Virus record (IMG/VR): IMGVR_UViG_3300045988_154609
Coordinates: 94,285-158,284 of that record
DNA from: a virus
Strand: one strand, 5' to 3'
DNA: 64,000 bases
A model generated the notes under the pieces. It was not told the origin of the DNA. It ran no database searches and was given only the letters and a program-made list of their open reading frames with translations. This document shows, piece by piece, positions 32,805-48,604 of this stretch. The translations under genes and the position numbers were made by a program. Each line of letters starts with the position of its first letter. Position 1 is the stretch's first letter.

Positions 32805-33074
32805 TCAACAATGATACTCATATTTTACTAACCAATATTCTTTGCCGTTTTCTTTATAAAGAACAGCATGGTCATCATATGGTGTTGTTATCAAACTTTT
32901 AAGTTTTTGAACAGCTTCAGTTTTATTTTTATAAACTGCATTTTTATGAAAAGTTAAATTTCCATGATACCCACTTGATTCTTGCGGGTCATAAGCAAAA
33001 CTGTTTAAATCTCGTAAAATTTGGGATTCTTTTGTAGAGCCGTCATAACTCTTATACCCAATTAAATGGCTCAT
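32805..33074 (-). CDS. hypothetical protein
   Basis: 89-aa ORF. Confidence 0.4.
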   Translation of the reverse strand: MSHLIGYKSYDGSTKESQILRDLNSFAYDPQESSGYHGNLTFHKNAVYKNKTEAVQKLKSLITTPYDDHAVLYKENGKEYWLVKYEYHC

Positions 33075-33622
33075 AGCATATCTTTACACTCCTCATATTT
33101 ATTTTTTATATCTTCAATAACTGTATCTAGTGAAACTGGATAACAGTTATGAGAATCAACTCCTACATGATACATAAAGAAATTATCTTCATAAAAATTA
33201 ACATTCTGATGTGTATGACCAAATAAGTTTAAAGTCATATGATGTAATCCTGAATCATCAACATTACCAGTTAATGTTGGATAATGACTCATATAAAAAT
33301 TATACTTTTTATATTTTAAAACTGTCGAATATCCAAGGCATTCAAGATCATTCTCTTTGTAAAGATTAATTCTTGTATTTGTATCATGGTTTCCAATAAT
33401 AAAATACTTTTTACCATTTAGCTGTTTTAAACATTCGAGTCCATGTTCATTATCTTTCAGCATCAAGTCGCCTAAGATATACACTTCATCTTCTGGCTGC
33501 ACCAGCTCATTCCATCTTTTAATAATTTCTTCGTCATGGTCAACAATATTCGGAAAGCCTCTTGGCTCATAAATGAAACCTTTATCATGACCCAGGTGAA
33601 GGTCTGAAGTCACATAAATCAT
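33071..33622 (-). CDS. calcineurin-like metallophosphoesterase
   Basis: MIYVTSDLHLGHD...GDL...GNHD motifs. Overlaps the kinase gene start and stop. Confidence 0.7.
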   Translation of the reverse strand: MIYVTSDLHLGHDKGFIYEPRGFPNIVDHDEEIIKRWNELVQPEDEVYILGDLMLKDNEHGLECLKQLNGKKYFIIGNHDTNTRINLYKENDLECLGYSTVLKYKKYNFYMSHYPTLTGNVDDSGLHHMTLNLFGHTHQNVNFYEDNFFMYHVGVDSHNCYPVSLDTVIEDIKNKYEECKDML

Positions 33623-34203
33623 TCTACATACTCCTTATCAGCATCTCCTACAATCAAAATATGTTTGTAGGTATATTTTTCATTGTAAGTTGGCTTATCA
33701 AAAGTATAAAACATTCTTCTGATTGTTCCTCTTGGAACATAAGCACGTCCCATTCCTTTTCGATTCTCATTCTGAGCAAGAATTTGAGCAAGCGGTAAAT
33801 TAAATACAACTGGAATAATATCTACTCCATCCAAATCAAGCTTATCAAGAACTCGATTTCTTGCTTTTTCACTCAGATGAGTTGCATCTGCAAAAACTGC
33901 AATATCATCAGTTGCGTCATTTAAAGCATTTTTAATTCTATTGCAGAACTCATCAAAGACATCATCTTCATACTTGAAGATGTTTTTATCATCTTCTTTT
34001 AAGAATTCAGCTCTTACTTCATCTCTTGACACATGTACACACTTGTAAGTCGTTGCCTGTGCCATTTCCTTCTTGACGTAAGTCGTCTTTCCCGATCCTG
34101 CGGGTCCGCACATAAGAAAGAGAATCTTGTGCTTCATCTTTATACACCCCATTTTTAAAATTTTCTTTAAACTCAAGAACATCCTCATATGATTTACATT
34201 CAA
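33619..34203 (-). CDS. P-loop polynucleotide-kinase-like protein (AAA_33/zeta-like). Likely true start near 34137.
   Basis: Walker A LMCGPAGSGKTTY. Translationally coupled to the phosphoesterase, resembling a split bacterial Pnkp healing module. Confidence 0.55.
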   Translation of the reverse strand: MNVNHMRMFLSLKKILKMGCIKMKHKILFLMCGPAGSGKTTYVKKEMAQATTYKCVHVSRDEVRAEFLKEDDKNIFKYEDDVFDEFCNRIKNALNDATDDIAVFADATHLSEKARNRVLDKLDLDGVDIIPVVFNLPLAQILAQNENRKGMGRAYVPRGTIRRMFYTFDKPTYNEKYTYKHILIVGDADKEYVE

Positions 34204-34369
34204 TATGGTTTACTTCTTGTTTGCAGAATACACAGTACATTTTCTTTCTATGAAATCTACCATGTTGATGACTATTACGACGTGGTAAACTCATATTTTT
34301 ATGACCGCAATTCATGCAATAAAAATCATTGATTATCATTTTTCCATTTCTTCGTCCCATTAGTATCAA
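34019..34369 (-). CDS. small Cys-rich zinc-ribbon protein. The 3' part overlaps the kinase ORF in another frame and may be over-extended.
   Basis: CMNCGH...CVFCKQ motifs. Alternative-start ORF that follows a promoter box. Confidence 0.35.
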   Translation of the reverse strand: MILMGRRNGKMIINDFYCMNCGHKNMSLPRRNSHQHGRFHRKKMYCVFCKQEVNHIECKSYEDVLEFKENFKNGVYKDEAQDSLSYVRTRRIGKDDLRQEGNGTGNDLQVCTCVKR

Positions 34370-34390
34370 TTCCTTTTAATTATTTATTAC

Positions 34391-34425
34391 ATATATATTA
34401 TATAATATTTTTTATAAAATATCAA
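34391..34425 (-). promoter_or_regulatory. conserved promoter box, downstream copy of a tandem pair
   Basis: Same about 45-bp motif as in 20 or more other intergenic regions. Confidence 0.55.
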
Positions 34426-34475
34426 TTAAGATATTTTATTGAGTATCGGAAAGGATTTTTAAAATCCTTTCCTTA

Positions 34476-34518
34476 ACTTTCTATATATATTATATAATAT
34501 TTTTTATAAAATATCAAT
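34476..34518 (-). promoter_or_regulatory. conserved promoter box, upstream copy of a tandem pair
   Basis: AACTTTCTATATATATTATATAATATTTTTTATAAAATATCAA, a near-identical duplicate of 34391-34425. Confidence 0.55.
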
Positions 34519-34742
34519 TAAATATCAATTTCTGCATCTAACATAAAATTTTCAGCCTTAATTTTTTCCCAAGCCTCTTCTCTTTTCTTTTTTCGATGAA
34601 ATATAGATTTAACTTTCATGACTTCTGATATTGCTTCTGCACTGATCATAGCATCAAGCATTGACCATTGCCCATCACAAGCTCGTTTATTGGCCCATTC
34701 AGAGAACTCATCAAATGTAACGTCTTTCATTTCTTTCTTCAT
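34518..34742 (-). CDS. hypothetical protein
   Basis: 74-aa ORF. Confidence 0.4.
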   Translation of the reverse strand: MKKEMKDVTFDEFSEWANKRACDGQWSMLDAMISAEAISEVMKVKSIFHRKKKREEAWEKIKAENFMLDAEIDI

Positions 34743-34744
34743 TT

Positions 34745-35923
34745 TTATCTCCTCTGCATTATTCCAAAAGGATTGTCACTATAATAGTCTCCTTCAATTT
34801 GCGGAGTGTATTCATTACAATGTGTAATAATGATTTTTTTAGAAAATCTTGTATCAAGTTTGACTTTTTCAAAATCATTATCGATTCGAGTAATTACATC
34901 ACTCTTTTTCATTACACCATATCTTAATCCACCCTGGAAATCATTATGTACATTTGTTTTATCAAACATCTCTGTATTGATTTCTTTTTTCTGAGCTTCT
35001 TGCTCAATAGGGCCAACCCCATGTCTGGTTACATATGAACGCATTACATAGCAAGCATCAACTGAAATGTCTTTTTTATCTGCTAAAATCTCAAAAGGAT
35101 ATGTTACTCCTGTGCGGGAAGTGGTATGCCAAACATCATCATAATAGAAATCAAGTCCTAATCCCTGACCATTCTCAAAAATAAAACTATCAAACTTATG
35201 ATAAAGATTGTCAAAAGTGATAATTTCATTTCTCTCAAGGAAAAATAATATATCACTTCTAAAATTACAAATTAAAGACTGTCTACCAACGGAATGTTTA
35301 TCAAAATATTCTCTGTAAGTAGTAATTTTATCAAGCTGTACTCCACGCTTAAAAAGAATTACAAGACAATCTCTCCAAATTTCTTCCATATGGAAAAGAT
35401 ATTCTTCATCTGTCCAGCTTGCAAAATCAGCAACTGTAAAATGAGTCTTCATTGTAGGATCGCCATATCTATCCTCAATAGCACACCAAGAGCCAAAGCC
35501 GCAAGAACCATATTCTCTTTCACCATTCTGCTCGGCAATCCAATTTTCTGTAATATGATCAATCATCATATCAAAAGGAGTAATTACTTTTGCTTCTGGA
35601 TCAACGTATCCTTTTAAATTCAAAGGAAATAAATGCTGTTCCAATAACTCATAATACTCTTTTGTATAAGTCATAGGATGAATAAAAAAGGTTTTCGCAA
35701 AAAAAGTTGGAACTCCTTCTGCGGTGCCGCTTCCAAAATGATGGTAGACATGCCGCAATTTAGTTGTATAATCAACTGTATGACCACGCTGAGCCGTTCC
35801 ATTGTGAAAGATTACTACTGGTTTTAAACCTCGATTAAGAGCATCTTCACAAAAATGATTTGTTACAAGACCTTTTCCTTCATCTCCAAAGTTTGCTCCA
35901 ATAACAATTTTACTTTCTTTCAT
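34745..35923 (-). CDS. divergent adenylosuccinate synthetase (PurA) family enzyme; candidate PurZ-like nucleotide-modifying enzyme
   Basis: VIGANFGDEGKG (PurA P-loop GDEGKGK), GTAQRGHTV (GHNAGHT His), FENGQGLGLD (Q224 region) and SYVTRHGVGP are present. The TTGRRRR loop is replaced by GGLRYGV. Length is 392 aa, shorter than cellular PurA. Confidence 0.7.
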   Translation of the reverse strand: MKESKIVIGANFGDEGKGLVTNHFCEDALNRGLKPVVIFHNGTAQRGHTVDYTTKLRHVYHHFGSGTAEGVPTFFAKTFFIHPMTYTKEYYELLEQHLFPLNLKGYVDPEAKVITPFDMMIDHITENWIAEQNGEREYGSCGFGSWCAIEDRYGDPTMKTHFTVADFASWTDEEYLFHMEEIWRDCLVILFKRGVQLDKITTYREYFDKHSVGRQSLICNFRSDILFFLERNEIITFDNLYHKFDSFIFENGQGLGLDFYYDDVWHTTSRTGVTYPFEILADKKDISVDACYVMRSYVTRHGVGPIEQEAQKKEINTEMFDKTNVHNDFQGGLRYGVMKKSDVITRIDNDFEKVKLDTRFSKKIIITHCNEYTPQIEGDYYSDNPFGIMQRR

Positions 35924-35924
35924 T

Positions 35925-36236
35925 TTAGTCTAACCTTTCATCACAATATTTATCTACAAAAGTTTCAAAGCCCATTCTCGCACAAATTACATCAAGTTCA
36001 TCGGCTGTTTCTTTAACAGAGTCTTTAATAGAATAAATAATCCAATTATATTCCTGCTCAACAATTTCATCTTCATCATTTAACCCAAAAGATTCAGCAA
36101 CATTATAAGCCATTTCATAGCCATAATCATTGGCTTCTTCAATATCATCTACCTCTACAACTTGACAATTATAGATTCCATGTAATCCCTGATAAGTACC
36201 TTCTGTTGCATAAATATAAACTCTCATAAAAAACAC
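35925..36236 (-). CDS. small highly acidic protein (possible DNA mimic)
   Basis: About 100 aa, very D/E-rich, with its own promoter box and a strong SD. Confidence 0.4.
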   Translation of the reverse strand: MFFMRVYIYATEGTYQGLHGIYNCQVVEVDDIEEANDYGYEMAYNVAESFGLNDEDEIVEQEYNWIIYSIKDSVKETADELDVICARMGFETFVDKYCDERLD

Positions 36237-36244
36237 CTTCCTTA

Positions 36245-36286
36245 ATTTTCTATATATATTATATTATATTTTTAATAAAAAATCAA
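36245..36286 (-). promoter_or_regulatory. conserved promoter box
   Basis: aattttctatatatattatattatatttttaataaaaaatcaa. Confidence 0.55.
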
Positions 36287-36314
36287 AGGAGGACTATTAT
36301 CCTCCTTTTATATT

Positions 36315-37235
36315 TTAAATGTCCCAGCTCACTTCAGAAGAAGCTGTATCATTGTCATTAATATCAATTTTAACTGGACCAGTTTCAAAAGCTGTTCCTG
36401 TTTTACTTCCATGATTAATTACAATATCTGTAATAATCTTTGCAAGACCATTTAAACCAGATACAAAGTAATGGTCATTTCCTACAAGTTTTCTCCAAGA
36501 CTCATCAAAGTCTGGGTGTCTACTGCATAACCATTTATAAGAGCTTTCATTATCATCAATAGAGATATGGTAAACATCAAATTTTTCAAAAACTTCTTTC
36601 TGTAAATCTTCTGTTTCAACATCTCCCTGGAGAGAATCTCCAGTACATTCAGCTAATCCCCATTTTGGTAAATAAGGATTTGGCTTTTCATCTCCCATTG
36701 TAATGATAATGCCTTTCTGACCTCTGTTCCAGCAGTCAAGTTTACAATGATTTAATCCCATATACCAAGCGGCTGTATAAGACTCAAAACTATTACCACC
36801 ACCGCCGCCTTCAAAATACATCTTATCAAGCTGCTCTGCAATTCTAATATCAGATTCAAACTGAGACATCTGAATTGGCGCTCTGTCATAAGCAAGGTCT
36901 CCGATTCCCATTACACAGAACTCAACATCCTTAATAGAGTTGTCTGCATAAATATCAGTCATAATCTCATTCAGCTTCTTAGCAACCTGAACTGCGGCGC
37001 CGCCCATAGAACCAGTTACATCAAGTGCCAGAATAACTGGAACTGTATGCGGATGCTCCTCAGAATCGCAACATTCACGCATTACTCCTTTTGGATTTAA
37101 AGCTGCGTCAAGTTTACGAGATGTATAAAACTCCTGTGCTGAAAAAGCCATTGTATCAAACTCGTCAAGAGAAACTCCTCTTGAATGAGATGTATAATCA
37201 CTAAATGCTTTAGTTGTCCAACTTCCTCCACCCAT
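36315..37235 (-). CDS. von Willebrand factor A domain protein
   Basis: MIDAS motif LALDVTGSMGG. Translationally coupled to the upstream Met-rich ORF. Confidence 0.6.
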   Translation of the reverse strand: MGGGSWTTKAFSDYTSHSRGVSLDEFDTMAFSAQEFYTSRKLDAALNPKGVMRECCDSEEHPHTVPVILALDVTGSMGGAAVQVAKKLNEIMTDIYADNSIKDVEFCVMGIGDLAYDRAPIQMSQFESDIRIAEQLDKMYFEGGGGGNSFESYTAAWYMGLNHCKLDCWNRGQKGIIITMGDEKPNPYLPKWGLAECTGDSLQGDVETEDLQKEVFEKFDVYHISIDDNESSYKWLCSRHPDFDESWRKLVGNDHYFVSGLNGLAKIITDIVINHGSKTGTAFETGPVKIDINDNDTASSEVSWDI

Positions 37236-37996
37236 TAGTCTTCGTCCTCCTCATCATCATCTGTGCTAACTACCGAAGCATCACCAAAATCAAAAGCTCC
37301 CTCAAACATATTCTCAAACATGTTTCCGCCATTTCCCATCATCATAAACATCATAGGATTAATACCGCCCATGTTCATAGAACCGCCTGTGTTATTTCCA
37401 TTAAACATCTGGCTCATCATCATCATACTCATCATAGAAGACATAGAACCATTATCCTTAGTCATATTCATAAACGGACTGAAAATCTTACCATAGCAGT
37501 ATGTTTTTCCCATAAAGACATGATGCTCTGGAATAGTCTCCTGGATAGTGGAGTCTTTATAACTGAAAGTCTTGATAGAATTTTTTCCTACCTCAATGAC
37601 TGCTCTTGGCTCGTTATTAACCAGGATAATGTCACCAACAGCAACTTTAAATGTAGGAACTACCCAAAATGCTCCATCCATATCAAAAGCGAAATTATCG
37701 CAGTTTGTAAGTTTCATTGTCTTAACATTGAAAGTTTTGTAGCCATTCTGCACCTTAATGGCAATCTTACCATTAGCGCCCATTTTGCAATAACCTTTTG
37801 CTACTGGTTTAAACATTCCATTAAACATATTTCCAAAATCAAACATATTTTCTTCTTTCCTTTCCTTTAGCTTTTTTTCTGTATTTCTAACAATAGCCCA
37901 ATGATCCATTATATCACCTATATTTCTTAAAGCCTTATCTACAGCTTCTGAAAAGCTTGGATCATCAATATCAAAAGCATATCCATTTGTTATCAT
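37235..37996 (-). CDS. protein with Met/Gly/Asn-rich low-complexity C-terminal region
   Basis: C-terminal ...MSSMMSMMMMSQMFNGNNTGGSMNMGGINPMMFMMMGNGGNMFENMFE...DDDEEDED. Confidence 0.5.
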   Translation of the reverse strand: MITNGYAFDIDDPSFSEAVDKALRNIGDIMDHWAIVRNTEKKLKERKEENMFDFGNMFNGMFKPVAKGYCKMGANGKIAIKVQNGYKTFNVKTMKLTNCDNFAFDMDGAFWVVPTFKVAVGDIILVNNEPRAVIEVGKNSIKTFSYKDSTIQETIPEHHVFMGKTYCYGKIFSPFMNMTKDNGSMSSMMSMMMMSQMFNGNNTGGSMNMGGINPMMFMMMGNGGNMFENMFEGAFDFGDASVVSTDDDEEDED

Positions 37997-38053
37997 TTCT
38001 TTTACTTTCTATATATATTATATTATATTTTTTTTATTTTATCAATTTACATA

Positions 38054-38371
38054 TTACTTATCCTCATCATCGTAACAATAAAAATGTTCATCAGGATCTT
38101 TTCTTACAGCATCCATACATCCATTAGTAGCTTCAAGAGCTTGAACAGGAGTTAAATCTCCATATAAAGTCTGATACCATTTTGGATGATAACATTTAAG
38201 ATAAGCAGGATCGCTTACACAATCTTTATATCCTCTTGGGCATACCGGATTGTATGCCCGAAACTGAGAATACTGAGGTACTTCTGCATATATAGGATTT
38301 TCTCTGCATTTAATGCAAAGATCTTTTGGAGCTACACATTTATCACATCTTGTCATTTTATTAGTCCTCAA
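38054..38371 (-). CDS. Cys-rich hypothetical protein
   Basis: 105 aa with multiple CxxC motifs. Confidence 0.4.
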   Translation of the reverse strand: MRTNKMTRCDKCVAPKDLCIKCRENPIYAEVPQYSQFRAYNPVCPRGYKDCVSDPAYLKCYHPKWYQTLYGDLTPVQALEATNGCMDAVRKDPDEHFYCYDDEDK

Positions 38372-39116
38372 AAATGCTATTTACGTCAAATAATACATTT
38401 TGTTCCCAAGTATCCAAATCAATTAATGGTAAATTTCCTGTAAAAAAACATCCTCCATCAATATCAATTTTATGAGCTTTACCCGCAGAATCTTTGCAAT
38501 AGAAATATGCTCCAGGAGAAGCTTTCTTTCCGCTCATCTTACACATATACTCATAACAATAATGACCTAAAAGGGGAACTGGAGTGTGTCCATGAACAAA
38601 AATTACATTATCCATTCCACCTTTTTCATCCCATTCATCATCAAAATGCTCTCGATTCCAAATAAAATCATCTTCAAACTCTGGAAATCCTAAGTGCGGG
38701 CCAGGTGTAAAACCTGAATGAGATAAAATTACAACTTCTCCATTTTTATTATCATAACGATACCACTTAGGCAAGTTGTCGATAATATCAATGTATTTTC
38801 TATCACTTCCATCTGCTTTCCATTCATCAAAAGTAGATTGACCACCATTAGCACAATGAAGTCTTGTGCAATGCTTTATCCGCATAGAATCTGCAAACAT
38901 CTGTTCATGGTTGCCGCAGATTAAGAAGAAATGTTCAGAATCTTCAAGAACCTCTTTTAAAATTTTGAATCCTTCTGGACCCCTATCTACACAATCACCT
39001 AAAATGTAGCAAAAACTATTGTCTGCATATACAATATTTTTTACCATTTCCCATAAATCATACTGACCATGAAGATCAGAACAACAATATACATGACTCA
39101 TATTTTTACACCTCAT
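38361..39116 (-). CDS. PPP-family Ser/Thr phosphatase (lambda phosphatase-like)
   Basis: GDCVDRGPEG and GNHE motifs, with an N-terminal DLHG. Confidence 0.75.
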   Translation of the reverse strand: MRCKNMSHVYCCSDLHGQYDLWEMVKNIVYADNSFCYILGDCVDRGPEGFKILKEVLEDSEHFFLICGNHEQMFADSMRIKHCTRLHCANGGQSTFDEWKADGSDRKYIDIIDNLPKWYRYDNKNGEVVILSHSGFTPGPHLGFPEFEDDFIWNREHFDDEWDEKGGMDNVIFVHGHTPVPLLGHYCYEYMCKMSGKKASPGAYFYCKDSAGKAHKIDIDGGCFFTGNLPLIDLDTWEQNVLFDVNSIFED

Positions 39117-39145
39117 ATCTTTTATAATAATTATTTGTTGTTTAT

Positions 39146-39331
39146 TTAAAAGGATGTTACTAAAAGTCCTTCATTCTTTAATAAAGCAACAATTTCGTCT
39201 TCTGGAATTTCATACCATCCAGGATTTTGATACTGAAGAACTTGATAAGCTAAAGACTCTAAAGCGTCTTCCAATTCGCATCTATCACAACCACCAAATT
39301 CAATCATTTTTATTTTTCCTTTCTCTTTCAT
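39146..39331 (-). CDS. hypothetical protein; near-leaderless with respect to the upstream promoter box
   Basis: Its ATG lies about 11 nt after the TATAAT of the promoter box. Confidence 0.4.
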   Translation of the reverse strand: MKEKGKIKMIEFGGCDRCELEDALESLAYQVLQYQNPGWYEIPEDEIVALLKNEGLLVTSF

Positions 39332-39333
39332 TT

Positions 39334-39370
39334 GATATATATATTATATAATATTTTTTATAAAAAATCA
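39334..39370 (-). promoter_or_regulatory. conserved sigma70-like promoter box (TTGATT-N16-TATAAT on minus strand)
   Basis: Minus strand reads cattgaTTGATTttttataaaaaatattaTATAATatatatatcaaATG. Confidence 0.6.
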
Positions 39371-39547
39371 ATGCCCTATCTTTTTGATAGGGCATTACGT
39401 TAATAATGTATTATATTTAAAATAATTTGTGCGATCCCGCCAAAAATAAAACCTGTTATATAGATATGACTTGGCTCATTAAATTTAGTGCTTAAAATAG
39501 CACCTGTCACACAAACTACGATAAATAGAATAAAAAAGATAATATTT

Positions 39548-40087: not shown

Positions 40088-40097
40088 ATATAACCTC

Positions 40098-40559
40098 CTA
40101 CTGGTTCAAAAGTTCAGTAAGAACTTTATTAATAAGTTTTCCATCTGCTTTGCCTTTAAGTTTAGGCATAATATTTTTCATAACCATACCTTTCATTTTT
40201 GGTCCAATAGGCTCAGTAACAACCTGAGTAAGCTCAATTAACTCTTCATTAATAAAAGCTCGAATTTCATCCTCTGTCATAAGAGTTGGAGCAAATTCTT
40301 TAATTACTTCAAGTCTATACTTATAAGATTCCAAAAGGTCTGTTCTTGCAGCAGGGCAAGTATCAATCATTTCCTGTACGGTTTTCTGCTCTTTTAAGAT
40401 AACTGCATCAACCATGTCTTCTGAAATGTTATTTCGGCAATTTTTATCAATAGCCGCCTTTTTAATAGCATCAACAAGACTGGAAATAACATCTTTTCGA
40501 GCCTTGTCTTTAGCCTTCATTGCGGTAACCATCTCTTTCATAACTGTATCAAGTGTCAT
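40098..40559 (-). CDS. GatB/YqeY-domain protein
   Basis: The overall pattern matches YqeY-like proteins (..LK.KDK.R..VI..L..AIK.A.ID... through ...MGKVMK..MPKLKGKADGKLI..VL.ELL). Confidence 0.55.
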   Translation of the reverse strand: MTLDTVMKEMVTAMKAKDKARKDVISSLVDAIKKAAIDKNCRNNISEDMVDAVILKEQKTVQEMIDTCPAARTDLLESYKYRLEVIKEFAPTLMTEDEIRAFINEELIELTQVVTEPIGPKMKGMVMKNIMPKLKGKADGKLINKVLTELLNQ

Positions 40560-40560
40560 T

Positions 40561-41302: not shown

Positions 41303-41533
41303 TTCCTTTACTCCTTTTTATTTATTTCTTAAAGTCATCTATAGTCATTATTAGATTCAAAATAAAACAAACTCCCCAACATATAGCACAAAAGATTGAA
41401 GTTCCAATCTTAAAATTTGTTGTAGCGAGTACAGCTTGTACTATAAAAAGAATACAAACTACTAAATCTAAAAGTGCTATTATAAGATATAAAAATCTCA
41501 TAGTATTTGCTCCTTTCTTAGAAGTTCCATTCC

Positions 41534-42715
41534 TTAAGAATGGAACTTCAATAAAAATTCATTGGAAACCGCCTTAAAGGACTGAACGCCATCCTGAGAA
41601 CGGAATACAAGACCTTCACGCATCTTTCCATCTATCACAGAATCACCTGTCGCAATAGCAAGAAGTTCATCAACTGTATCTGGAAGGATAAAGTTTTCAT
41701 CCACAATCGGCACCCATGGAATACCATACTCCATCATCAACTTGCTTGCCCGTTTAGAATCCCAACGACCTTCCGCAGAAGTGATGAAGTTAAATCCCAT
41801 AAAGTTATGCTCTTTCAGAGAGTATTCTCTCTTCTGGATACCCTGACCATAAGTTTCACCCTGAAGTGTTACCCATTCAAGGTCTGGACGATTTCTGAGA
41901 ATCTTCTGGAGAGTTGCTTCAACATTGTACTTTTCTGCCATTTCAACGTAAACGTTGGTATCATAAAAACAAGACTTATCCGGCTTATCAAATACTACAT
42001 TACGAGAGCAGATATAAAACTCAAATTTTTCTTTCTTCAAGAAACGAGTCTTAACTCTTTTCATTGTAAAGGTAGTAGAAGTACCATCAATTTTTTCAGT
42101 TGCAACCCATGGATTTTTATTCTCAAGAATCCAAGGCATATTTTGTACACGCTCTTCATCTGTTTTAGAAACCCATGCCGGCCATCCGGTTTTCTTATCA
42201 GAAGTTTTACCGAAGAACATGAATAAAATTTTCTTACCCCAAGTTCTACGCATTAACCATCTAAAAGGCTGATGAGAGAACAGTTTTCCATGTCTCTGAG
42301 CCATCTTTTTATATTTATCCACAGAAGATGCTTTACGAGCATTATCTTCTTTAACTGCATAAATTACTTTTAATTTCTGAGTTAAAAAGTCACCAAGTTT
42401 ATAAGCGTCCTTTTCCCAACCGAAGTCTTCAAAGCTCATAAGTAAACCCTGAGAAATTACAGTGCCTTTAAAATATTTCTGAGTTTTAATTTTAAAATGT
42501 TTCGGCTCAAGGAACATAAATGGCTCTTCTGCTGGAACTTTAGAATCAATCTCAAAGTAAACAGCTAAATCACCTGGCTTAAACTGGTCTTTACGAACCA
42601 TAATATGCCAACCATTTACGATAGCTACTTCTACTCTGTCAGCTCCTTCAATAGGACGAATCTCGTCAACTTTGACAACATAAGCAAGCTCTCTTTCTTT
42701 CTTTTCATTCAGCAT
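41534..42715 (-). CDS. ATP-dependent RNA ligase (Rnl family) with N-terminal OB/tRNA-binding-like domain
   Basis: Nucleotidyltransferase motif I TEKIDGTST (KxDG). The N-terminal ...VVKVDEIRPIEGADRVEVAIVNGW resembles a Myf/tRNA-binding OB fold. Confidence 0.65.
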   Translation of the reverse strand: MLNEKKERELAYVVKVDEIRPIEGADRVEVAIVNGWHIMVRKDQFKPGDLAVYFEIDSKVPAEEPFMFLEPKHFKIKTQKYFKGTVISQGLLMSFEDFGWEKDAYKLGDFLTQKLKVIYAVKEDNARKASSVDKYKKMAQRHGKLFSHQPFRWLMRRTWGKKILFMFFGKTSDKKTGWPAWVSKTDEERVQNMPWILENKNPWVATEKIDGTSTTFTMKRVKTRFLKKEKFEFYICSRNVVFDKPDKSCFYDTNVYVEMAEKYNVEATLQKILRNRPDLEWVTLQGETYGQGIQKREYSLKEHNFMGFNFITSAEGRWDSKRASKLMMEYGIPWVPIVDENFILPDTVDELLAIATGDSVIDGKMREGLVFRSQDGVQSFKAVSNEFLLKFHS

Positions 42716-42772
42716 ACCTATTAATCTCCTTTATTTATTGTAAATATATTATATAAAAATTTTAAAAGTAAA

Positions 42773-43348
42773 TCAATTAAGGTCTGTTTCTTTCAAACAT
42801 TCGTGATAAATCTTAATGAGATTTTTCTTATTTAAAAGTGCCTTATATCCAACATTATGCTCTTCTCTCCATGCTAAACGAGATAATACTTTATCTATAA
42901 AAGCTTTAGTCGCAGGATGCATAGCAATAGGATTCTTAATCTTATTCTGCCACCACTTATATTCTCCTTGATATGTAAAATTTTTTCCCATATAAGCCCG
43001 TCCCGCACCTAAATAATCACAAAGTAGCTCCAAAAGATACTTGTCTGGCATTGGGAGTGCGGTGCCACCTTTATCGAAGTTATCCTGCCAGTACTCATAG
43101 TGGTGTCGATTCCGACCTTTATGATGCTGCCAAGCAAAGGACATTCCATTTTCCTCTTTACAAGCATCTATCGGAGAACGAGTCCCCTGCCAATATTTGA
43201 CACCTTCCCAAAATTCAACAGGAGAAAATTTGGATAAATCGTGTGTAATTCCCTGCTTATAAAGACCAATTTTAAAGCAGTATTTTCCTACCCAATATTT
43301 ATGTTTACATACCGTTTTTAAGTGTCCAAAAAAGTTTTTAATTTTCAT
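42773..43348 (-). CDS. hypothetical protein (possible HD-like motif ITHDLSKF)
   Basis: 191-aa ORF. Confidence 0.4.
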   Translation of the reverse strand: MKIKNFFGHLKTVCKHKYWVGKYCFKIGLYKQGITHDLSKFSPVEFWEGVKYWQGTRSPIDACKEENGMSFAWQHHKGRNRHHYEYWQDNFDKGGTALPMPDKYLLELLCDYLGAGRAYMGKNFTYQGEYKWWQNKIKNPIAMHPATKAFIDKVLSRLAWREEHNVGYKALLNKKNLIKIYHECLKETDLN

Positions 43349-43351
43349 ATT

Positions 43352-43738
43352 TTATTCCTCTAAATATTTATACTCTATTTTATGTAAAGAATCATCTTTT
43401 TTATAGTAAATATAGGTACATTGTACCTGTATCTCATCTCCTTCTTTAATCGCATTAAATATAGAAGAAGAAACATTTACTTTTTCATTATTTACGCCAT
43501 ATAAATAATATGAATGATTTGTAATAGGAATAAGAACTTTCCCGCTTATTACAAAAGAATGATCTACATCATCTTCTTTATTTATAACTTCAACTGCTCT
43601 TACTTCAGTTTTTAAATAAAATTGGTCATAATACTTCCTTATCCCAGCTATAATTCCAATGCAAACTGCGATAATAAGTACCACAACTACAATGTGCTTT
43701 ATAATTTCTTTTAATCTTTGTCTTCTCCAATATTCCAT
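43352..43738 (-). CDS. hypothetical membrane-anchored protein
   Basis: N-terminal TM helix. Confidence 0.4.
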   Translation of the reverse strand: MEYWRRQRLKEIIKHIVVVVLIIAVCIGIIAGIRKYYDQFYLKTEVRAVEVINKEDDVDHSFVISGKVLIPITNHSYYLYGVNNEKVNVSSSIFNAIKEGDEIQVQCTYIYYKKDDSLHKIEYKYLEE

Positions 43739-44067
43739 TACTCAACTTTCCAACCAGCTTCCTTACAAACTCTTTTCATATTCTGAACTCCAACAGGATT
43801 CATACTATGAAATTTAAAAGTTGCATAAATATGCCAACCCCGCAGTTTTTGGCAACATTCAAGCCAGTCAAGAATTTTAATATAGTCTCCACCTTTCTCA
43901 TAATATTCACCGGCATCATGATCTAAATTAATTTCATTAACTTCAAGAATGTCTCCTTCTGGTCTAACAAGAGTAGTAAGACACATTTCTGCGTCCCAAA
44001 CACTCTTAATCCAAATATAAGATTCATCTGGCGCGGGCCGCATATCATCAATCCAAAGTTTAATCAT
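43738..44067 (-). CDS. hypothetical protein
   Basis: 109-aa ORF. Confidence 0.4.
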   Translation of the reverse strand: MIKLWIDDMRPAPDESYIWIKSVWDAEMCLTTLVRPEGDILEVNEINLDHDAGEYYEKGGDYIKILDWLECCQKLRGWHIYATFKFHSMNPVGVQNMKRVCKEAGWKVE

Positions 44068-44885
44068 TATTTTACCTCAAATTTCCAATAGTAGAAGTTG
44101 TACTGTTTCTTTGTATTATAGGATTTTTTAATCCTTTTGGCAATATTGTGGACATTTACAGTCGGATTATTTCTCATGCTCTTATCATATGATTTAACAT
44201 ATTCAACTGCTTCTTTAAGATTCTCAAATTTCTTAGTTCTTTCTTCTTCAAAATTTTTAGTAGGACAACAAAAAACATCAAAACGAGTATCTTCATATTC
44301 AATCTGGTCGGTTGTAATTTCCTTATACTCCATAAATACATTTGCATCTACTTCAGAAGCTTTTTCATTTTTACAGCCTTCATAAACTTCTTTTAACATC
44401 TTTGCATCGTCAAGAGAATTATGAGTCTGAACAATTTCTTCTCCTCTAAAATATTCGCAAACTTTAGCGAGGTTAATCAGTTTGATTAAGCCGAAATGAA
44501 CCTTAACAGCAGGAGCAAAATCCTTCATATCTGTATTCATATAACCAAGAATTGCTTTTGCTTTAAAACTATTTGTTTTGCGGAAGGTTGCTTTGATAAA
44601 ATCTGTATCACAATTCCCATAACAATAAAATTCAGGAATGTCATCGCCGCAATCTTCAAAACAAAAATCAAAGAACTCATTGAATACCTCTTCTGGAGAA
44701 GGAGCTGCTTCAACCATTTCTGTGGTAATACCTGTTAAATCAGTAATAAACTTAGAAACATTCTTATTTGTATTCTCTGGAGTATGCACAAGAGAATAAA
44801 ATTCTTTTCCATCTTCTCGAACACATCCAACAGAAATAATGTAATTGGAAAACTGCATTGCTTCAAAATCAATAAAATATTTCAT
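44067..44885 (-). CDS. DEDD-family 3'-5' exonuclease (DnaQ-like)
   Basis: Exo motif I FIDFEAM and a later H.SLDDA motif. Confidence 0.55.
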   Translation of the reverse strand: MKYFIDFEAMQFSNYIISVGCVREDGKEFYSLVHTPENTNKNVSKFITDLTGITTEMVEAAPSPEEVFNEFFDFCFEDCGDDIPEFYCYGNCDTDFIKATFRKTNSFKAKAILGYMNTDMKDFAPAVKVHFGLIKLINLAKVCEYFRGEEIVQTHNSLDDAKMLKEVYEGCKNEKASEVDANVFMEYKEITTDQIEYEDTRFDVFCCPTKNFEEERTKKFENLKEAVEYVKSYDKSMRNNPTVNVHNIAKRIKKSYNTKKQYNFYYWKFEVK

Positions 44886-44903
44886 AATGTATCAATCCTC
44901 TCT

Positions 44904-45086
44904 TTAGTCAAGTCTTACTTTTTTAGTATAAAGTTTCTTTTCAACAATACTTCCACAATCTGGACATCTGAAATAGGAAAAAATAGAATTTCGACATTCA
45001 TCTTGTGATGCAATAAATACACAATGACATTTTGAACATTTTAACCGATAACCATATTTGTCACCAGGTTTAAGAATTTTAATCAT
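44904..45086 (-). CDS. zinc-ribbon protein
   Basis: 60 aa, C..C...C.DC. Confidence 0.35.
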   Translation of the reverse strand: MIKILKPGDKYGYRLKCSKCHCVFIASQDECRNSIFSYFRCPDCGSIVEKKLYTKKVRLD

Positions 45087-45105
45087 TTCTTTTTATCCTT
45101 TCCTT

Positions 45106-45149
45106 AACTTTCTATATATATTATATTATAATTTTAATAAAAAATCAAT
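45106..45149 (-). promoter_or_regulatory. conserved promoter box
   Basis: aactttctatatatattatattataattttaataaaaaatcaat. Confidence 0.55.
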
Positions 45150-45160
45150 AAAGGAAAAAC

Positions 45161-45949
45161 TTATTCAGTTTTTCCTTTATTAAAATTAGGAGATTTTCTA
45201 AAATAAGTTGGAAGTAAATAATTTTGATCATTCCATCTTTTCCATATCTCTTCTAAATCTTCGATTGCTTTAAAATATTGTTCAACATGCGGGCGCTCCA
45301 TTCTATCTGCGTGAAAGTGACCAAAAAGCCAAACACCCCAATTAATCTTATCTTTAAAAGAATCAAGCCAAACTTCCATAGAATCATCTACAGTAGACTG
45401 GTCAATCATAGATAAAAATAAGTCAGTTGGTTCCCAGCTTAATGGACAAGTATGAGTAAAAACAAAATCAAAACTTTGTCCCGCATACATTGCTTCAATA
45501 GCCTGCATTTCTGCTTCTGTTAATTGTTCGTTTGGATACCAAGTATAATGATTTTCAAGTCTATACCATTTATCCACAGAATAAGCTCCACCTATTACAA
45601 GTGTATTATGACCAAGAAAATCATAATTAGAGCCATCCATAAGATAATGGATATGAGGATAACCGGGTTCAATGAAAACATAATTCGCAACATCATCATC
45701 CCAAACCTCTTCAATGCCTTTAACATCTTCTGGACGAGCTTCATGATTTCCCCTTACCAAATAAAATGTACATCCATATTGCTCAAGTTGCATCTTAATA
45801 TCATGTCGCCTTGCCGCACTTTTATAAAAATTTACACCTGCATCTCCTAAGATAATAATACCAGTCTCTTTTGGATTTTGTATTTCAAGCCATGCAAAAC
45901 GATCCATACAGCCATGTGTATCTCCTGTTACAAAAAACTGTTTAATCAT
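45161..45949 (-). CDS. calcineurin-like metallophosphoesterase
   Basis: FFVTGDTHG, LGDAGVN and RGNHE motifs. Overlaps the downstream nucleotidyltransferase gene by 4 nt. Confidence 0.7.
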   Translation of the reverse strand: MIKQFFVTGDTHGCMDRFAWLEIQNPKETGIIILGDAGVNFYKSAARRHDIKMQLEQYGCTFYLVRGNHEARPEDVKGIEEVWDDDVANYVFIEPGYPHIHYLMDGSNYDFLGHNTLVIGGAYSVDKWYRLENHYTWYPNEQLTEAEMQAIEAMYAGQSFDFVFTHTCPLSWEPTDLFLSMIDQSTVDDSMEVWLDSFKDKINWGVWLFGHFHADRMERPHVEQYFKAIEDLEEIWKRWNDQNYLLPTYFRKSPNFNKGKTE

Positions 45950-46767
45950 TTCTTTTCCTCCAACTCAAAAGCAATACTTTTCTTCATAATTTCTGCTTGA
46001 ACTTCTTGAAGAAGATTTTCAGCTTCTTCATCAGTATAGTTAAATTCAGAGTCTTTTGTATATGGGGCACAAATTTTATCAATATGAGCCATATGCTCAT
46101 CCGCAACTTTAATAGCTTCTTCTTTTGAATAAAGACCAGTTTTAATGTCTTTTAAATATTGCGGGTTAGCTGGACACAAACATTCTTTATATGGCGCTCC
46201 AGCAATATATTTATCGAGATATTCATCAATTCTCACAAGCTGATAAAGCTGTTTTGGGTCATAATTAAACTTTTCAAATGTTTCTTTATGAGCTTCTGTT
46301 TCTTTAGTAAGAGCATATCTTTTTCCAAGAGCAATGCCAGACATAGCTTTTACTGCGAAATAAGGATTATAATGTGCAATAACTTCATTTTTCGCAATCA
46401 ATTTATTCCACTCTTTTTCATACATTGGATTAATGATTTTATAATTAGTGAAAAGAATTTCAATAAAATTTAGATTCTGTTTGCGGAAAGTATCAAACAT
46501 AAGCCTAATATCTTTAAAGTCAATATGTTCCCCATTAGCCCTGAAATGAGTTGTAGACATAGGTTTACGATTATAAATAAAATCATTTAATGTCGGAGTG
46601 GTAATAAGTTTTGTATCAATATCAGAATCTTCAGTATCAAGACCATAATTTTGACTACCTTGTAGAAAAATACCTACAATATTATTCTTAGCAAAGTATT
46701 GTTTAGATTCAAGATAATGCTCTTGAATACCATTCGCAGTTTTAATTATTGTATTAAGGTCTGCCAT
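45946..46767 (-). CDS. pol-beta superfamily nucleotidyltransferase
   Basis: GS...D.D motif IFLQGSQNYGLDTEDSDIDT. Confidence 0.5.
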   Translation of the reverse strand: MADLNTIIKTANGIQEHYLESKQYFAKNNIVGIFLQGSQNYGLDTEDSDIDTKLITTPTLNDFIYNRKPMSTTHFRANGEHIDFKDIRLMFDTFRKQNLNFIEILFTNYKIINPMYEKEWNKLIAKNEVIAHYNPYFAVKAMSGIALGKRYALTKETEAHKETFEKFNYDPKQLYQLVRIDEYLDKYIAGAPYKECLCPANPQYLKDIKTGLYSKEEAIKVADEHMAHIDKICAPYTKDSEFNYTDEEAENLLQEVQAEIMKKSIAFELEEKK

Positions 46768-46785
46768 ACTTTCTCACCTTCCTTT

Positions 46786-46828
46786 AACTTTCTATATATA
46801 TTATAATAAATTTTTAATAAAAAATCAA
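46786..46828 (-). promoter_or_regulatory. conserved promoter box
   Basis: aactttctatatatattataataaatttttaataaaaaatcaa. Confidence 0.55.
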
Positions 46829-46859
46829 AAAAAGGGAGAAAGTATTTAAACTTTCTCCC

Positions 46860-47216
46860 TTAATCATCGGTTGCCCATTGTCCCTTTTTAACCAATCTTA
46901 CAAGTTCATAATCATGCTGGGTTGGTTCAACATAAAATTTATATTTCGCAGAAGCATATTCAGGAATATCAAAATGATGATTTGCGTCCCATACATAATC
47001 TAAACAATCAATAACAGCTTGTTGTTTATCTTTATCAGTTCCATTTGTATTTGCAGAAATATAAGCTAAAATTTCTTCTTCTTCACTTCCCCAATCATAA
47101 GATGGAAAAATTTGCATCTTTTCCGCAGGTTTAGGTCGAAAAAACATATTTAAAGATGTAAATAATACACATAAAAGAATAATTAAAAACATTTTTTCTT
47201 TCCAGTTAAAAATCAT
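46860..47216 (-). CDS. hypothetical protein with N-terminal TM/signal
   Basis: 118-aa ORF. Confidence 0.4.
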   Translation of the reverse strand: MIFNWKEKMFLIILLCVLFTSLNMFFRPKPAEKMQIFPSYDWGSEEEEILAYISANTNGTDKDKQQAVIDCLDYVWDANHHFDIPEYASAKYKFYVEPTQHDYELVRLVKKGQWATDD

Positions 47217-47230
47217 ACATGAATCCTTTC

Positions 47231-47659
47231 TTATAAGAAATAATGTAATACAGGAATATATTTATCCCGCAATTTTTCTGTAAGTGTATCAGTTAAAGTC
47301 ATATGATCTTTCATGTCTGCCTGTTTAACGATGAAAGCATAATCATCTTTTGCATCAAGAATTTTATGAATATAATCTTCATATTTTTCTTGAGGGTCTT
47401 TTGTTAAAAGAACCACAGAATCATAAGCTACCATGCCCAAAGTGGACATTAAATCCTCTTTTGGACAATCAGTATCTTCTAATAGGTCATGTGCCAATGC
47501 AATCATATAAGCCTTTGTTATATCCATTTTTAAACGATCAGCTTTTGCGGTCGCATATTCAGCAACCCGCAAAGCATGAGCTAATTTTTTCTTAGGATAA
47601 TATTGAACTGCCAAATTAAATAATTTATTCACTTTTGTAATATCATAATTACAGCCCAT
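47231..47659 (-). CDS. HD-domain phosphohydrolase, RelA/SpoT-hydrolase-like (candidate alarmone or nucleotide hydrolase)
   Basis: LAHALRVAEYA ... ALAHDLLEDT ... LGMVAYDSVVLLTKD closely resembles the SpoT/Mesh1 HD hydrolase core. Confidence 0.65.
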   Translation of the reverse strand: MGCNYDITKVNKLFNLAVQYYPKKKLAHALRVAEYATAKADRLKMDITKAYMIALAHDLLEDTDCPKEDLMSTLGMVAYDSVVLLTKDPQEKYEDYIHKILDAKDDYAFIVKQADMKDHMTLTDTLTEKLRDKYIPVLHYFL

Positions 47660-47697
47660 TAACGTCCCTCCTCGAAAATGCTATATCCCCTTATCAT

Positions 47698-48604
47698 TTA
47701 TTCTTCTCCTATGTAAATTAAATCATCAACATATTTGCGGTCTTCACCTTTTAAAATAGGCATATTTTTATCAATAACCCAGATAGGTCTTTCTTCAATA
47801 ATTGTAGTTGTAACTTTATCTTCTCCAAAAGGTTGTGGTTCTCTTTTTATATTTTCAGTTACTTTTGTTGCGACTTTAATACATGCGGTACCTCGTTTAC
47901 ATGGTATTGTAAAATCATTCCAATTAATACCATATTTAGTCATTAACATATCTTGAATCATATTACAAGTTTTATCTTGAAGTTCATCATGTGAAAAATG
48001 AGCTTGTCCGACCATTTGAATACTATTTCTTGTTGCATCAAGTTGCCGCCAATAGATTAGGTTAGTTACCTCTTCTTTTGGAATGTTAAAACATCTGGCA
48101 TCAAACAATGCTCCTTTCTTAATTGCTTTAGAATAAATTTCAGACAATTTCCACTCTGGTGAATTTGTTACTTCTGGATCATTAGTACCACCTTCATACC
48201 ATTCATATCCAAAAGTTTCAACGCCCCATTTATCCACTTCTTGAGCGAAGAATCTGTTAAAAGCCATAGTTGCCATTGAAGCAGAAATACTACATATTTT
48301 CTGAACTTCATAATCGAACCATGCAGAAGAAGTGAATTTCTGATAATCCACTAAAATCAGAGTAATTTCATCTGATTGTGTATATCCAAAAACGCAACCT
48401 TGAATATTTTCACATAAATATTTCATTGTTTGTTGCATTGTATCCATTAGCACAAAATCAAAGGGTTTTTGAAAACTTCTTGTAAAAGTATGAAACGCCT
48501 TACCGTCAAAGACGTATCGCTACTGGTGTTCTTCTCATAAGAACAGTTTTACTAACTTTTTCATAATTTTTCATTCTGTTAGCTAAATCACTTCTATTCA
48601 TAAC
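47698..48604 (-). CDS. Thg1-like protein (tRNA-His guanylyltransferase-like 3'-5' polymerase), interrupted by a +1 frameshift near 48510
   Basis: The N-terminal 31 codons (MNRSDLANRMKNYEKVSKTVLMRRTPVAIRL*) end at a TGA. The next frame continues FDGKAFHTFTR...YTQSDEITLIL... (Thg1 RMK.YE, P..IRLDG.aF and SDE motifs). One extra T sits in the CTTTGACGG run. Confidence 0.6.

Follow-up and report, generated by a model that had tools for sequence, protein, structure and literature searches.

A dispersed RNA-repair gene set in a human-gut phage, with a Thg1-like gene whose probable +1 frameshift site lies at the edge of a putative homing-endonuclease cassette

Introduction

Two questions are raised by positions 94,285 to 158,284 of the IMG/VR virus record IMGVR_UViG_3300045988_154609: whether its scattered genes for an RNA ligase, a polynucleotide kinase, phosphoesterases and nucleotide-adding enzymes form one RNA-repair system, and how a Thg1-like gene among them, broken by a stop codon after codon 31, could still yield its product. 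This whole stretch of 64,000 nucleotides, from a phage genome of 196 kb, is referred to here as the window, and all of the evidence is sequence and predicted structure. We propose that the window carries a dispersed RNA-repair set, that its Thg1-like protein (TLP) is made by +1 frameshifting, and that a mobile homing-endonuclease cassette adjoins the frameshift site; to this explanation as a whole we assign a probability of about 0.68.

The window is human-gut phage DNA. An identical ligase protein is encoded by a 195,681-bp contig from a human-gut metagenome (ENA ERZ913873) and by several others of 50-200 kb. Its G+C content is ~31%, and the minus strand carries all of the genes discussed. 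At the DNA level there is no close cultured phage; the Thg1 region is matched best by Fusobacterium phages, at ~72% identity. A preliminary description of this DNA had seen in it a countermeasure to tRNA-cleaving defences that goes beyond the Pnk/Rnl pair of phage T4. As a novelty this cannot stand, since multi-enzyme RNA-repair sets of large phages have already been catalogued (PMC7824862). The toolkit is of a known kind, described for jumbo phages, and what is added here is a conserved operon built around an Rnl5-type ligase and a Ro60-like protein.

Genes for healing and sealing RNA ends

Searches with hidden Markov models and against structure databases placed the genes at, or within a few bases of, the coordinates given in the preliminary description, with the domains assigned to them there. 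The genes predicted to heal and seal RNA ends are the following.

41534-42715, minus strand: LIG, predicted Rnl5-type ATP-dependent RNA ligase, with an N-terminal OB domain and a nucleotidyltransferase domain; motif I is KIDG
34019-34360, minus strand: small Zn-ribbon protein, CxxC...CxxC, with tblastn homologues in ligase loci
33619-34140, minus strand: KIN, predicted P-loop polynucleotide 5'-kinase (AAA_33, 4.7e-17), with GPAGSGKT and SRD seen directly
33071-33622, minus strand: MPE1, predicted binuclear metallophosphoesterase of the aq_1665 type (Metallophos_2, 6.8e-8; phrog_547 phosphoesterase, 3e-44)
45161-45949, minus strand: MPE2, predicted metallophosphoesterase, translationally coupled to a nucleotidyltransferase (Metallophos, 3e-8; phrog_1649, 7e-22)
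38361-39116, minus strand: MPE3, predicted lambda-phosphatase-like metallophosphoesterase (PDB 1g5b, 8e-9; phrog_246, 3e-37)

The 393-aa LIG matches the PHA02142 OB profile over residues 10-93 (7e-22) and RNA_ligase over residues 202-383 (7e-21), and it has no C-terminal appendage, in keeping with the domain order of Rnl5. Because both domains align with those of the Naegleria ligase NgrRnl (PDB 5cot, 1.8e-27), LIG is assigned to the Rnl5 type; in the alignment its motif I, EKIDGTS, stands against VKLDGSS, and KIDGTS can be read directly in the sequence. LIG shares domain order and motif I with DraRnl and NgrRnl, whereas it is ~50 aa longer and falls under the TIGR02306 (DraRnl) equivalog cutoff (94.9 bits versus 151.15). 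Its best family description is phrog_968 (7e-65), and by sequence it belongs to a divergent Rnl5 branch. These matches bear out the earlier identification of an RNA ligase with KIDGTS and an OB domain, as opposed to a DNA ligase.

A profile of 20 KIN homologues, compared with known structures, found the kinase of Clostridium thermocellum Pnkp (CthPnkp; 4gp7, 6e-19), PSTK (3.6e-17), T4 Pnk (5.6e-15) and Pnkp1 (8e-15), but adenylate kinases only at 2e-4. On these profiles KIN groups with the polynucleotide kinases and not with the nucleotide kinases, as expected for the kinase of RNA ends that the preliminary description had predicted. ATG 34140 is a more likely start than TTG 34203, because homologues begin to align at residue 28 and GGGGTG stands 8 nt before that ATG. 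The Zn-ribbon protein belongs to no Pfam family that we could find. Its open reading frame (ORF) extends ~120 nt beyond ATG 34140 in another frame, spanning the P-loop codons of KIN, and tblastn suggests that the same overlap nucleotides are conserved in relatives.

MPE1, in which DLHLGH, GD, GNHD and GHTH are seen directly, belongs to a family whose profile matches PDB 1xm7 (aq_1665) at 6e-18, and it is predicted to heal 3' ends. MPE3 has further matches to the phosphatase region of phrog_8238 (8.6e-8) and to positions 226-323 of TIGR04075 (2.6e-5), and its subfamily is that of the Pnkp phosphatase domain. An ATGA overlap joins the stop of KIN to the start of MPE1, and another joins the stop of the nucleotidyltransferase gene to the start of MPE2, so that the coupling and overlap described earlier are both read in the DNA.

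The suggestion that KIN and MPE1 recall a split bacterial Pnkp holds only as an analogy. CthPnkp is the best structural relative of KIN and likewise has a kinase followed by a metallophosphoesterase. However, it is a single chain that ends in a ligase domain of its own and has Hen1 as its partner, whereas here there are three genes, the ligase lies 7.3 kb from the kinase and is of the Rnl5 type rather than a Pnkp C-terminal domain, and no Hen1 turned up among the ~40 window ORFs scanned for domains. The phosphoesterase coupled to KIN is moreover of the aq_1665 type and not of the lambda-phosphatase type, the lambda-phosphatase-like MPE3 being 4.2 kb away, and TIGR04075, the model for bacterial Pnkp, scores only 25.5 bits against a cutoff of 750.

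Rebuilding enzymes and accessory proteins

A second group of genes would restore lost nucleotides or otherwise attend to RNA.

45946-46767, minus strand: NTase, RlaP-like Pol-beta nucleotidyltransferase, with a sub-threshold Polbeta match and GS...SDIDT seen directly
42773-43348, minus strand: DUF5662 protein, probably an HD-fold metal-dependent phosphohydrolase
43738-44067, minus strand: cREC, 'cyclic-phosphate processing' receiver-like domain (PF20274, 5.5e-13)
44067-44885, minus strand: DEDDh 3'-5' exonuclease with a C-terminal extension (RNase_T, 1.3e-16)
47231-47659, minus strand: small HD phosphohydrolase between Thg1 and NTase (PF01966, 1.4e-5; phrog_990, 3e-17)
55473-56996, minus strand: Ro60/TROVE-like protein, helical repeat plus vWA, beside the tRNA genes (DUF2828 and DUF7788)
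57256-58877, minus strand: four tRNA genes, Cys-GCA, Lys-UUU, Gly-UCC and Leu-UAA (ARAGORN and Rfam)

The NTase had been described as a pol-beta nucleotidyltransferase. Its own Pfam match to Polbeta stays below threshold (4.4e-4; 20.8 bits against a cutoff of 26.9), and the protein itself does not match PF10127 (RlaP) at E<=0.01. The more specific RlaP assignment comes through its homologues, 21 of 37 of which (49-94% identity) match that model, at best with 9e-8. Neither single-sequence nor profile searches found a relative of the NTase in the PDB. RlaP enzymes extend damaged RNA by one or two nucleotides at its 3' end, and over-trimmed tRNA needed them to regain aminoacylation (PMC12776372); the NTase is likewise predicted to add nucleotides at the 3' end of damaged RNA.

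Six of these parts, namely cREC, the DUF5662 protein, the small HD protein, MPE3, the Zn-ribbon protein and the Ro60-like protein, were absent from the preliminary description. A linkage of cREC to RNA ligases has been described (PMC7824862), and in the window a TAATG overlap joins the stop of the exonuclease to the start of cREC. The AlphaFold2 model of the Ro60-like protein (predicted local distance difference test score 69) has Ro60 or Rsr as all of its top 8 Foldseek matches in the PDB, at full length and with E-values of 8e-7 to 4e-4. The model is only moderate, with template-modelling scores of 0.3-0.4 to Ro60/Rsr, and the protein has neither a TROVE match in Pfam nor a Ro protein among its PDB sequence matches. 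Rfam detected only tRNAs, with no Y RNA, intron or other RNA. The four tRNA genes announced earlier are real; they lie at 57256-58877, however, ~8.7 kb outside the interval given for them.

Gene order in other phages

We fetched 80 viral loci with relatives of the ligase and searched them with all window proteins. The counts that follow use 77 of these loci (53-66% ligase identity; individual loci carry L numbers), near-identical relatives being left out. KIN and MPE1 homologues were both present in 62 of the 77; KIN lay at most 2.5 kb downstream of the ligase in 53, both genes followed the ligase directly in 50, and the Zn-ribbon gene stood between ligase and kinase in 40 (tblastn). A homologue of MPE2 was found in 21 loci, 14 of them with the gene within 2.5 kb upstream of the ligase, and a homologue of the RlaP-like NTase in 19, with 13 within 4 kb upstream. 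Lower recurrence was seen for MPE3 (16/77), the Ro-like gene (13/77), Thg1 (10/77), cREC and DUF5662 (6/77 each) and the small HD protein (3/77). The Ro-like gene is embedded within the KIN-MPE1...LIG cluster in several loci, and some loci are compact: HD-NTase-MPE2-LIG-MPE3-KIN-MPE1 in L111 (HD also in L120 and L138), Thg1-NTase-MPE2-LIG in L145 and LIG-Thg1-KIN-MPE1 in L153.

Functional linkage of the kit genes is thus supported by their neighbourhoods, which tie together the ligase, kinase, MPE1, MPE2, RlaP-like NTase and Thg1 of the multi-enzyme set proposed earlier. Since the cluster is contiguous in other phages and dispersed here, the window holds a broken-up copy, its kit genes being spread over 15 kb and beyond amid unrelated PurA-like, vWA-like and YqeY genes and small ORFs. 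Some observations weigh against so unified a set. The DEDDh exonuclease, whose domain is as described, has no homologue in any of the 77 ligase loci, and its membership in the kit is uncertain. In a reverse set of 75 diverged loci centred on Thg1, the kit genes are rare, each occurring in only 1-6 loci; Thg1 is therefore an occasional accessory rather than part of the core. In addition, RNase H, gyrase and NAD-dependent DNA ligase genes are frequent neighbours of the ligase cluster, so a role at RNA-DNA junctions is possible.

The last of these points bears on a different explanation, namely that the genes do not form one RNA-repair system, and that the roles of the Rnl5 ligase, the kinase and the phosphoesterases lie in DNA replication or repair, for example at RNA-DNA nicks or nuclease-damaged DNA ends. 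In a variant, the phosphoesterases break down signalling nucleotides of the host or dephosphorylate proteins, and co-location reflects only a general early or auxiliary region. Rnl5 enzymes do accept a 5'-PO4 DNA strand, loss of DraRnl sensitises cells to radiation, MPE3 is closest to the lambda protein phosphatase, and the window genes are interspersed with unrelated ones. Yet the genes recur in tight clusters with the RNA-specific RlaP, TLP, Ro60-like protein and cREC, KIN is nearest to Pnkp, PSTK and T4 Pnk, and the order LIG-Zn-ribbon-KIN-MPE1 is kept across diverged phages. Weighing these, we regard a DNA-centred or unlinked role as improbable and prefer a dispersed RNA-repair set. Assignment of the ligase to DNA ligases and of the kinase to nucleotide kinases, or a want of activity on RNA, had been named beforehand as outcomes that would tell against RNA repair; neither was encountered, given the Rnl5 ligase, the Pnk-clade kinase and the conserved gene order.

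A Thg1-like gene split at a shifty stop

The Thg1-like gene had been given as a single gene at 47698-48604. Its Thg1 domain is as described, but it is not one ORF: a TGA follows codon 31, and the rest lies in the +1 frame.

48506-48601, minus strand: Thg1-like ORF0, from ATG 48601, with 31 codons, MNRSDLANRMKNYEKVSKTVLMRRTPVAIRL, and TGA at 48508-48506
47698-48507, minus strand: main part of the Thg1-like gene in the +1 frame, bacterial TLP type, starting at the Asp codon GAC of RLDG (PF04446, 1.2e-14)
48505-48511, minus strand: shifty stop CUU UGA C after CGU, predicted +1 frameshift site and apparent 3' edge of the endonuclease cassette

Once the frame is corrected, the protein has 300 aa, its +1 part reading DGKAFHTFT..., and it aligns with the TLP of B. 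thuringiensis (4kgk, 9e-52) from residue 6 and without a gap across the junction. This is its best match and a full-length one. The RxDG and SDE carboxylate motifs are common to both proteins, and only in the frame-corrected protein do RLDG and QSDE align with them; the phage copy differs in a ~40-aa insertion in its middle and in needing a frameshift. Because gene callers split the gene into a 31-aa ORF and a 249-aa 'Thg1', such genes are mis-annotated.

The sequence at the junction, CUU UGA with C in the fourth position, is the shifty stop of prfB, the gene for release factor 2 (RF2) (PMC13245932). As in prfB, CUU UGA C lies ~25-31 codons into the gene and the product needs the +1 frame. The relative L009 (83% identity) shares the site, while the gene is intact in L005-L008. 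We scanned sequence collections with the degenerate DNA pattern CTTTGAYGGNAARGCNTTYCAYAC, which gave 6 viral, 10 metagenomic and 6 genomic matches. Sixteen of these 22 are Thg1 genes split at this very spot (6 viral, 8 metagenomic, 2 genomic), two (L095 and L097) are a decayed variant, and four are unrelated in-frame genes from high-G+C genomes. A scan specific to the site gives no unbiased frequency; in the unbiased 80-locus sample, one locus has it. The site occurs in at least 8 diverged lineages, as judged by the ORF0 peptide, on 24 contigs. One carrier is an isolate, Eubacterium plexicaudatum ASF492 (contig AQFT02000004.1), which suggests Clostridia as hosts.

A sequencing or assembly error might be suspected from a single extra T in a short run of T's. 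The same site is found, however, in those 24 contigs from many independent studies and assemblers, including the isolate genome, always in different surroundings, and gene calls give the exact 31-aa ORF0 on 7 contigs of separate assemblies, two different ENA assemblies among them. An error is for this reason a practically negligible explanation, and we rejected it.

Three further candidates were rejected. Known transcriptional slippage tracts are far longer than the three T's present here. UGA cannot simply be read as a sense codon, because frame 0 of the window meets TAA two codons later. Internal initiation is excluded because only 4 open codons precede the Asp in the +1 frame, none of them a start codon, and because initiation at the first start, GTG 48453, would lose the catalytic Asp.

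A putative mobile cassette upstream of the site

Directly upstream of the Thg1-like gene lies a homing-endonuclease gene.

48621-49646, minus strand: LAGLIDADG homing endonuclease of 341 aa, double-motif, with a NUMOD-like C-terminal region (LAGLIDADG_2, 5.9e-21)
48508-49765, minus strand, approximate extent: putative mobile cassette, comprising the endonuclease gene, a ribosome-binding site, replacement Thg1 codons 1-31 and an extra T

In the L088 group, the largest group of carriers, a 358-aa homologue of the endonuclease that is 50% identical stands at the same spacing upstream of a frameshift-type Thg1. Six contigs of that group share, at 95-100% identity, a block of ~1.3 kb that begins ~100 nt before the endonuclease start and ends at the frameshift site. 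Upstream of this block the sequence is unrelated, with three different neighbouring genes, and downstream of it identity falls at once to 80-90% and lower. The relatives of the window show breaks at the same site: no difference separates the window from L009 between the ribosome-binding site and the frameshift site, and L005 differs strongly from the window up to the site and is ~95% identical after it. L005-L008 are close relatives without the cassette and with an intact gene, and ORF0 replaces their 33-codon N-terminus, the last ~60 nt being ~87% identical and the earlier part not aligning.

Several carriers are without the endonuclease, and the site is present in all of them. In L009 the endonuclease gene has been cleanly removed, apparently by deletion between AGAAAG repeats; L087 and L094 retain only ~60 nt of the endonuclease 3' end; and L096, L099, L101, L093 and L189 have no endonuclease. 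A profile of 3 endonuclease sequences found only four contigs in IMG/VR, all with a frameshift-type Thg1 that was already known. A single-sequence search for relatives of the endonuclease found none, and no cultured phage of the phage collection has the cassette. We judge that the cassette is quite probably mobile.

A precedent exists in T4 mobA/gene 60, in which an endonuclease gene is followed by an element-encoded N-terminal segment, a homologue of the target sequence it replaces, that ends in a protective recoding signal (PMC5009743; bioRxiv 10.1101/2022.08.31.505936). The likeness lies in an endonuclease gene 5' of a replacement N-terminal region, a recoding signal at the 3' edge, clean breaks in identity, and endonuclease-less derivatives that keep the recoding signal. 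The differences are that here a +1 frameshift of 1 nt takes the place of a 50-nt hop, the endonuclease is LAGLIDADG and not HNH, and the target is replaced at its 5' end rather than split. By this analogy the extra T, at the 3' edge of the cassette, would destroy the endonuclease's own target in the conserved RLDG-coding DNA and protect the carrier, a role that we consider possible and somewhat short of an even chance. That the LAGLIDADG gene and the prfB-type shifty stop CGU CUU UGA C form a single mobile cassette invading phage Thg1-like genes at the RLDG DNA, with the extra T as immunity and the enzyme still made by +1 frameshifting, is a tentative proposal that we hold at slightly under even odds.

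An inverted repeat, CGTC-TTT-GACG (48503-48513 of the window), is kept in all carriers except L099, which has GATG in the second arm. It could matter for recognition by the endonuclease rather than for RNA folding.

Expression of the interrupted gene

Is the interrupted gene still expressed? Among the carriers CGTCTTTGAY is invariant, whereas ORF0 and the downstream part have diverged to 45-50% amino-acid identity and differ at many synonymous and non-synonymous sites; the synonymous positions flanking the motif vary too. The base after UGA is C except in one lineage, L099, which has T. The +1 ORF is open in all 13 complete copies from the viral and metagenome scans (226-257 codons), as it is in the window and L009, and its dN/dS among carriers is 0.11-0.30. 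In the 77 intact homologues the site mostly reads AGA, AGG or CGC followed by ATT or CTG, and CGT CTT GAC occurs in 1 of 77.

Several features tell against productive frameshifting. No Shine-Dalgarno-like stimulator is present, the upstream sequence being variable and not G-rich; the spacer codon is always CGU and not the weak UAU or UCU of prfB; and there is no conserved RNA structure near the site, just a trivial 4-bp CGUC/GACG hairpin with no covariation. The low dN/dS may mostly predate the invasion, and it is weaker evidence than the values suggest because near-identical cassettes sit on old, diverged downstream sequence. L095 and L097 carry two more 1-nt deletions and look decayed, and a selfish cassette could spread a null allele.

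These features are what would be expected if the gene were a pseudogene, inactivated by a one-base insertion that may have arisen as a repair scar or as an escape mutation where the endonuclease cuts, the null allele spreading with the selfish endonuclease or being immune to it. The nearly identical cassettes, which make the invasions look recent, and the patchy distribution of Thg1 among phages, in which it may be dispensable, agree with such an account. Against it, the site is unchanged while the two endonucleases share only 50% identity and the ORF0 peptides have come to differ at about half of their positions, and it persists in at least 5 endonuclease-less lineages, each with an intact +1 ORF. 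The insertion also makes exactly the best-known bacterial +1 shifty stop from a precursor that is rare in intact genes, and the rare CGT-CTT codon pair is retained in all frameshift copies. A pseudogene thus seems to us unlikely. Because the site persists despite deep divergence of the cassette, because it outlasts loss of the endonuclease with the ORF intact, and because the sequence created is the canonical shifty stop, we argue that productive +1 frameshifting at the Thg1-like gene is probable. The step would proceed as in prfB, with tRNA-Leu slipping from CUU to UUU while UGA awaits RF2, giving a product ...AIRL-DGKAFH... that contains the catalytic Asp. TLP is no release factor, so an autoregulatory loop like that of prfB is not apparent.

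If so, the level of TLP may track RF2 activity and termination efficiency in the infected cell. No link of Thg1 to frameshifting was found in the literature searched, in which this would be the first prfB-like +1 frameshift to be reported for an RNA-repair gene of a phage. A preprint describes the T4 gene-60 bypass cassette as unique (bioRxiv 10.1101/2022.08.31.505936), and the present one would be, after T4 mobA/gene 60, a second natural case of recoding that tolerates a homing-endonuclease insertion. Confirmation would make recoding a more general route for homing endonucleases into essential coding sequence without an intron or intein, and would add a simple +1 frameshift signal without a Shine-Dalgarno stimulator in Clostridia-associated phages.

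Other irregular copies of the gene were seen. The variant shared by L095 (OFGL01002808) and L097 (OFHA01008941) has deletions before the site (CGT to C-T) and 22 nt after it (ACGTTC to ACG-TC), so that RLDG, read as LLFDG, is back in frame before the frame breaks once more; this may be a decaying copy. The Thg1 homologue of L023 (~10050) has an in-frame TAG where its relatives have Gln, which may be stop-codon recoding; those of L050 and L053 (~10250) read TAA in frame at a position that is Gln, Glu or Lys in relatives; and that of L010 (~10100) has Asn for the catalytic Asp (RINGKAFH).

A proposed repair pathway and its known relatives

Metal-independent RNases yield 2',3'-cyclic-phosphate and 5'-OH ends. 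In the proposed pathway, host RNases would leave 2',3'-cyclic-phosphate or 3'-phosphate ends together with 5'-OH ends. MPE1 would clear the 3' end to a 3'-OH, for which cREC, the two HD-fold proteins or MPE3 are possible alternatives, and KIN would phosphorylate the 5' end. LIG would then seal 3'-OH/5'-PO4 breaks through a lysyl-AMP, most likely in base-paired contexts. MPE2 and the RlaP-like NTase may restore lost 3' nucleotides, and the Ro60-like protein beside the four tRNA genes may hold damaged RNAs. TLPs of the bacterial type lengthen tRNAs that are truncated at the 5' end, working in the 3'-5' direction, and the phage TLP would refill 5'-truncated tRNA acceptor stems.

Rnl5 enzymes seal nicks in duplexes (PMC4408790). 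For this reason the anticodon loop, and with it the PrrC/tRNA-Lys target put forward earlier, is not the obvious one; breaks in stems, such as acceptor stems and rRNA helices, fit at least as well as anticodon-loop cuts, because Rnl5 ligases prefer duplex nicks. A caution on the whole pathway is that the in vivo or physiological substrates of Rnl5 have been described as unknown (PMC4408790). Compared with DraRnl and NgrRnl, the phage LIG has conserved healing-enzyme neighbours, a context that the family lacked; Rnl5 ligases thereby gain a concrete, testable RNA-repair context in a conserved phage operon, often with RlaP, TLP and a Ro60-like protein.

The RNA-repair sets of large phages (Burroughs & Aravind 2016; Iyer et al. 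2021, PMC7824862) follow the same logic and share with the window a ligase, kinase, calcineurin-like and HD phosphoesterases, cREC, RlaP, Thg1, TROVE and tRNAs. In contrast to the Rnl1, Rnl2 and RtcB of the jumbo-phage list in PMC7824862, the ligase here is of the Rnl5 type. The 3' phosphatase is of the metallophosphoesterase and not the HAD type, and a conserved LIG-Zn-ribbon-KIN-MPE1 operon can be defined in relatives that is broken up in this genome. The pair of T4 Pnk and Rnl1, which mends PrrC-cut tRNA-Lys, has in common with this set its heal-and-seal logic and its kinase clade. T4 Pnk, however, has a fused HAD (DxDxT) phosphatase and T4 Rnl1 seals anticodon loops, whereas the window has separate proteins, binuclear-metal phosphoesterases and a predicted nick-sealing Rnl5.

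Other genes in the window

The genome is rich in free-standing homing-endonuclease-like genes. Three further ones lie at 15887-16879, 25299-26048 and 58885-59511, two of them GIY-YIG and one HNH. The HNH endonuclease-like gene is directly beside tRNA-Leu, and homologues of the GIY-YIG gene 25299-26048 occur inside the ligase-kinase clusters of L161, L178 and L179. A diversity-generating retroelement occupies 51707-54934, with a reverse transcriptase gene at 51707-52924 (RVT_1, 1.4e-20), a template repeat at 53128-53258 and a variable repeat at 53339-53469. The variable repeat sits at the 3' end of the ORF 53327-54934, and the 131-nt pair of repeats has 30 of its 31 mismatches on template adenines.

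Between LIG and MPE3 there is a YqeY/GatB-like domain protein (40098-40559; PF09424, 1e-24), possibly tRNA-related, with homologues at two of the diverged ligase loci. A microbial-type PARG/macro-domain protein (50266-51075; PF10021, 1.2e-29) is encoded three genes upstream of the cassette and might process ADP-ribose derivatives tied to RNA repair or defence; it showed no linkage in the diverged loci.

The genes at 17569-32756 encode an NAD-dependent DNA ligase, GyrA, RNase H, GyrB, an endolysin-like protein, PIN-PhoH and a 510-aa Band-7/flotillin protein. The ligase-kinase-MPE1 operon of relatives usually has RNase H, gyrase and PhoH after it, and Band-7 recurs near MPE3. A divergent adenylosuccinate-synthetase-like (PurA-like) gene lies at 34745-35923 (PF00709, 1e-18; the PurZ model gives only 0.0094), and its neighbours at 36315-37235 and 37235-37996 match no Pfam family. 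Homologues of these three genes are the commonest near Thg1, in ~20 of the 75 diverged loci.

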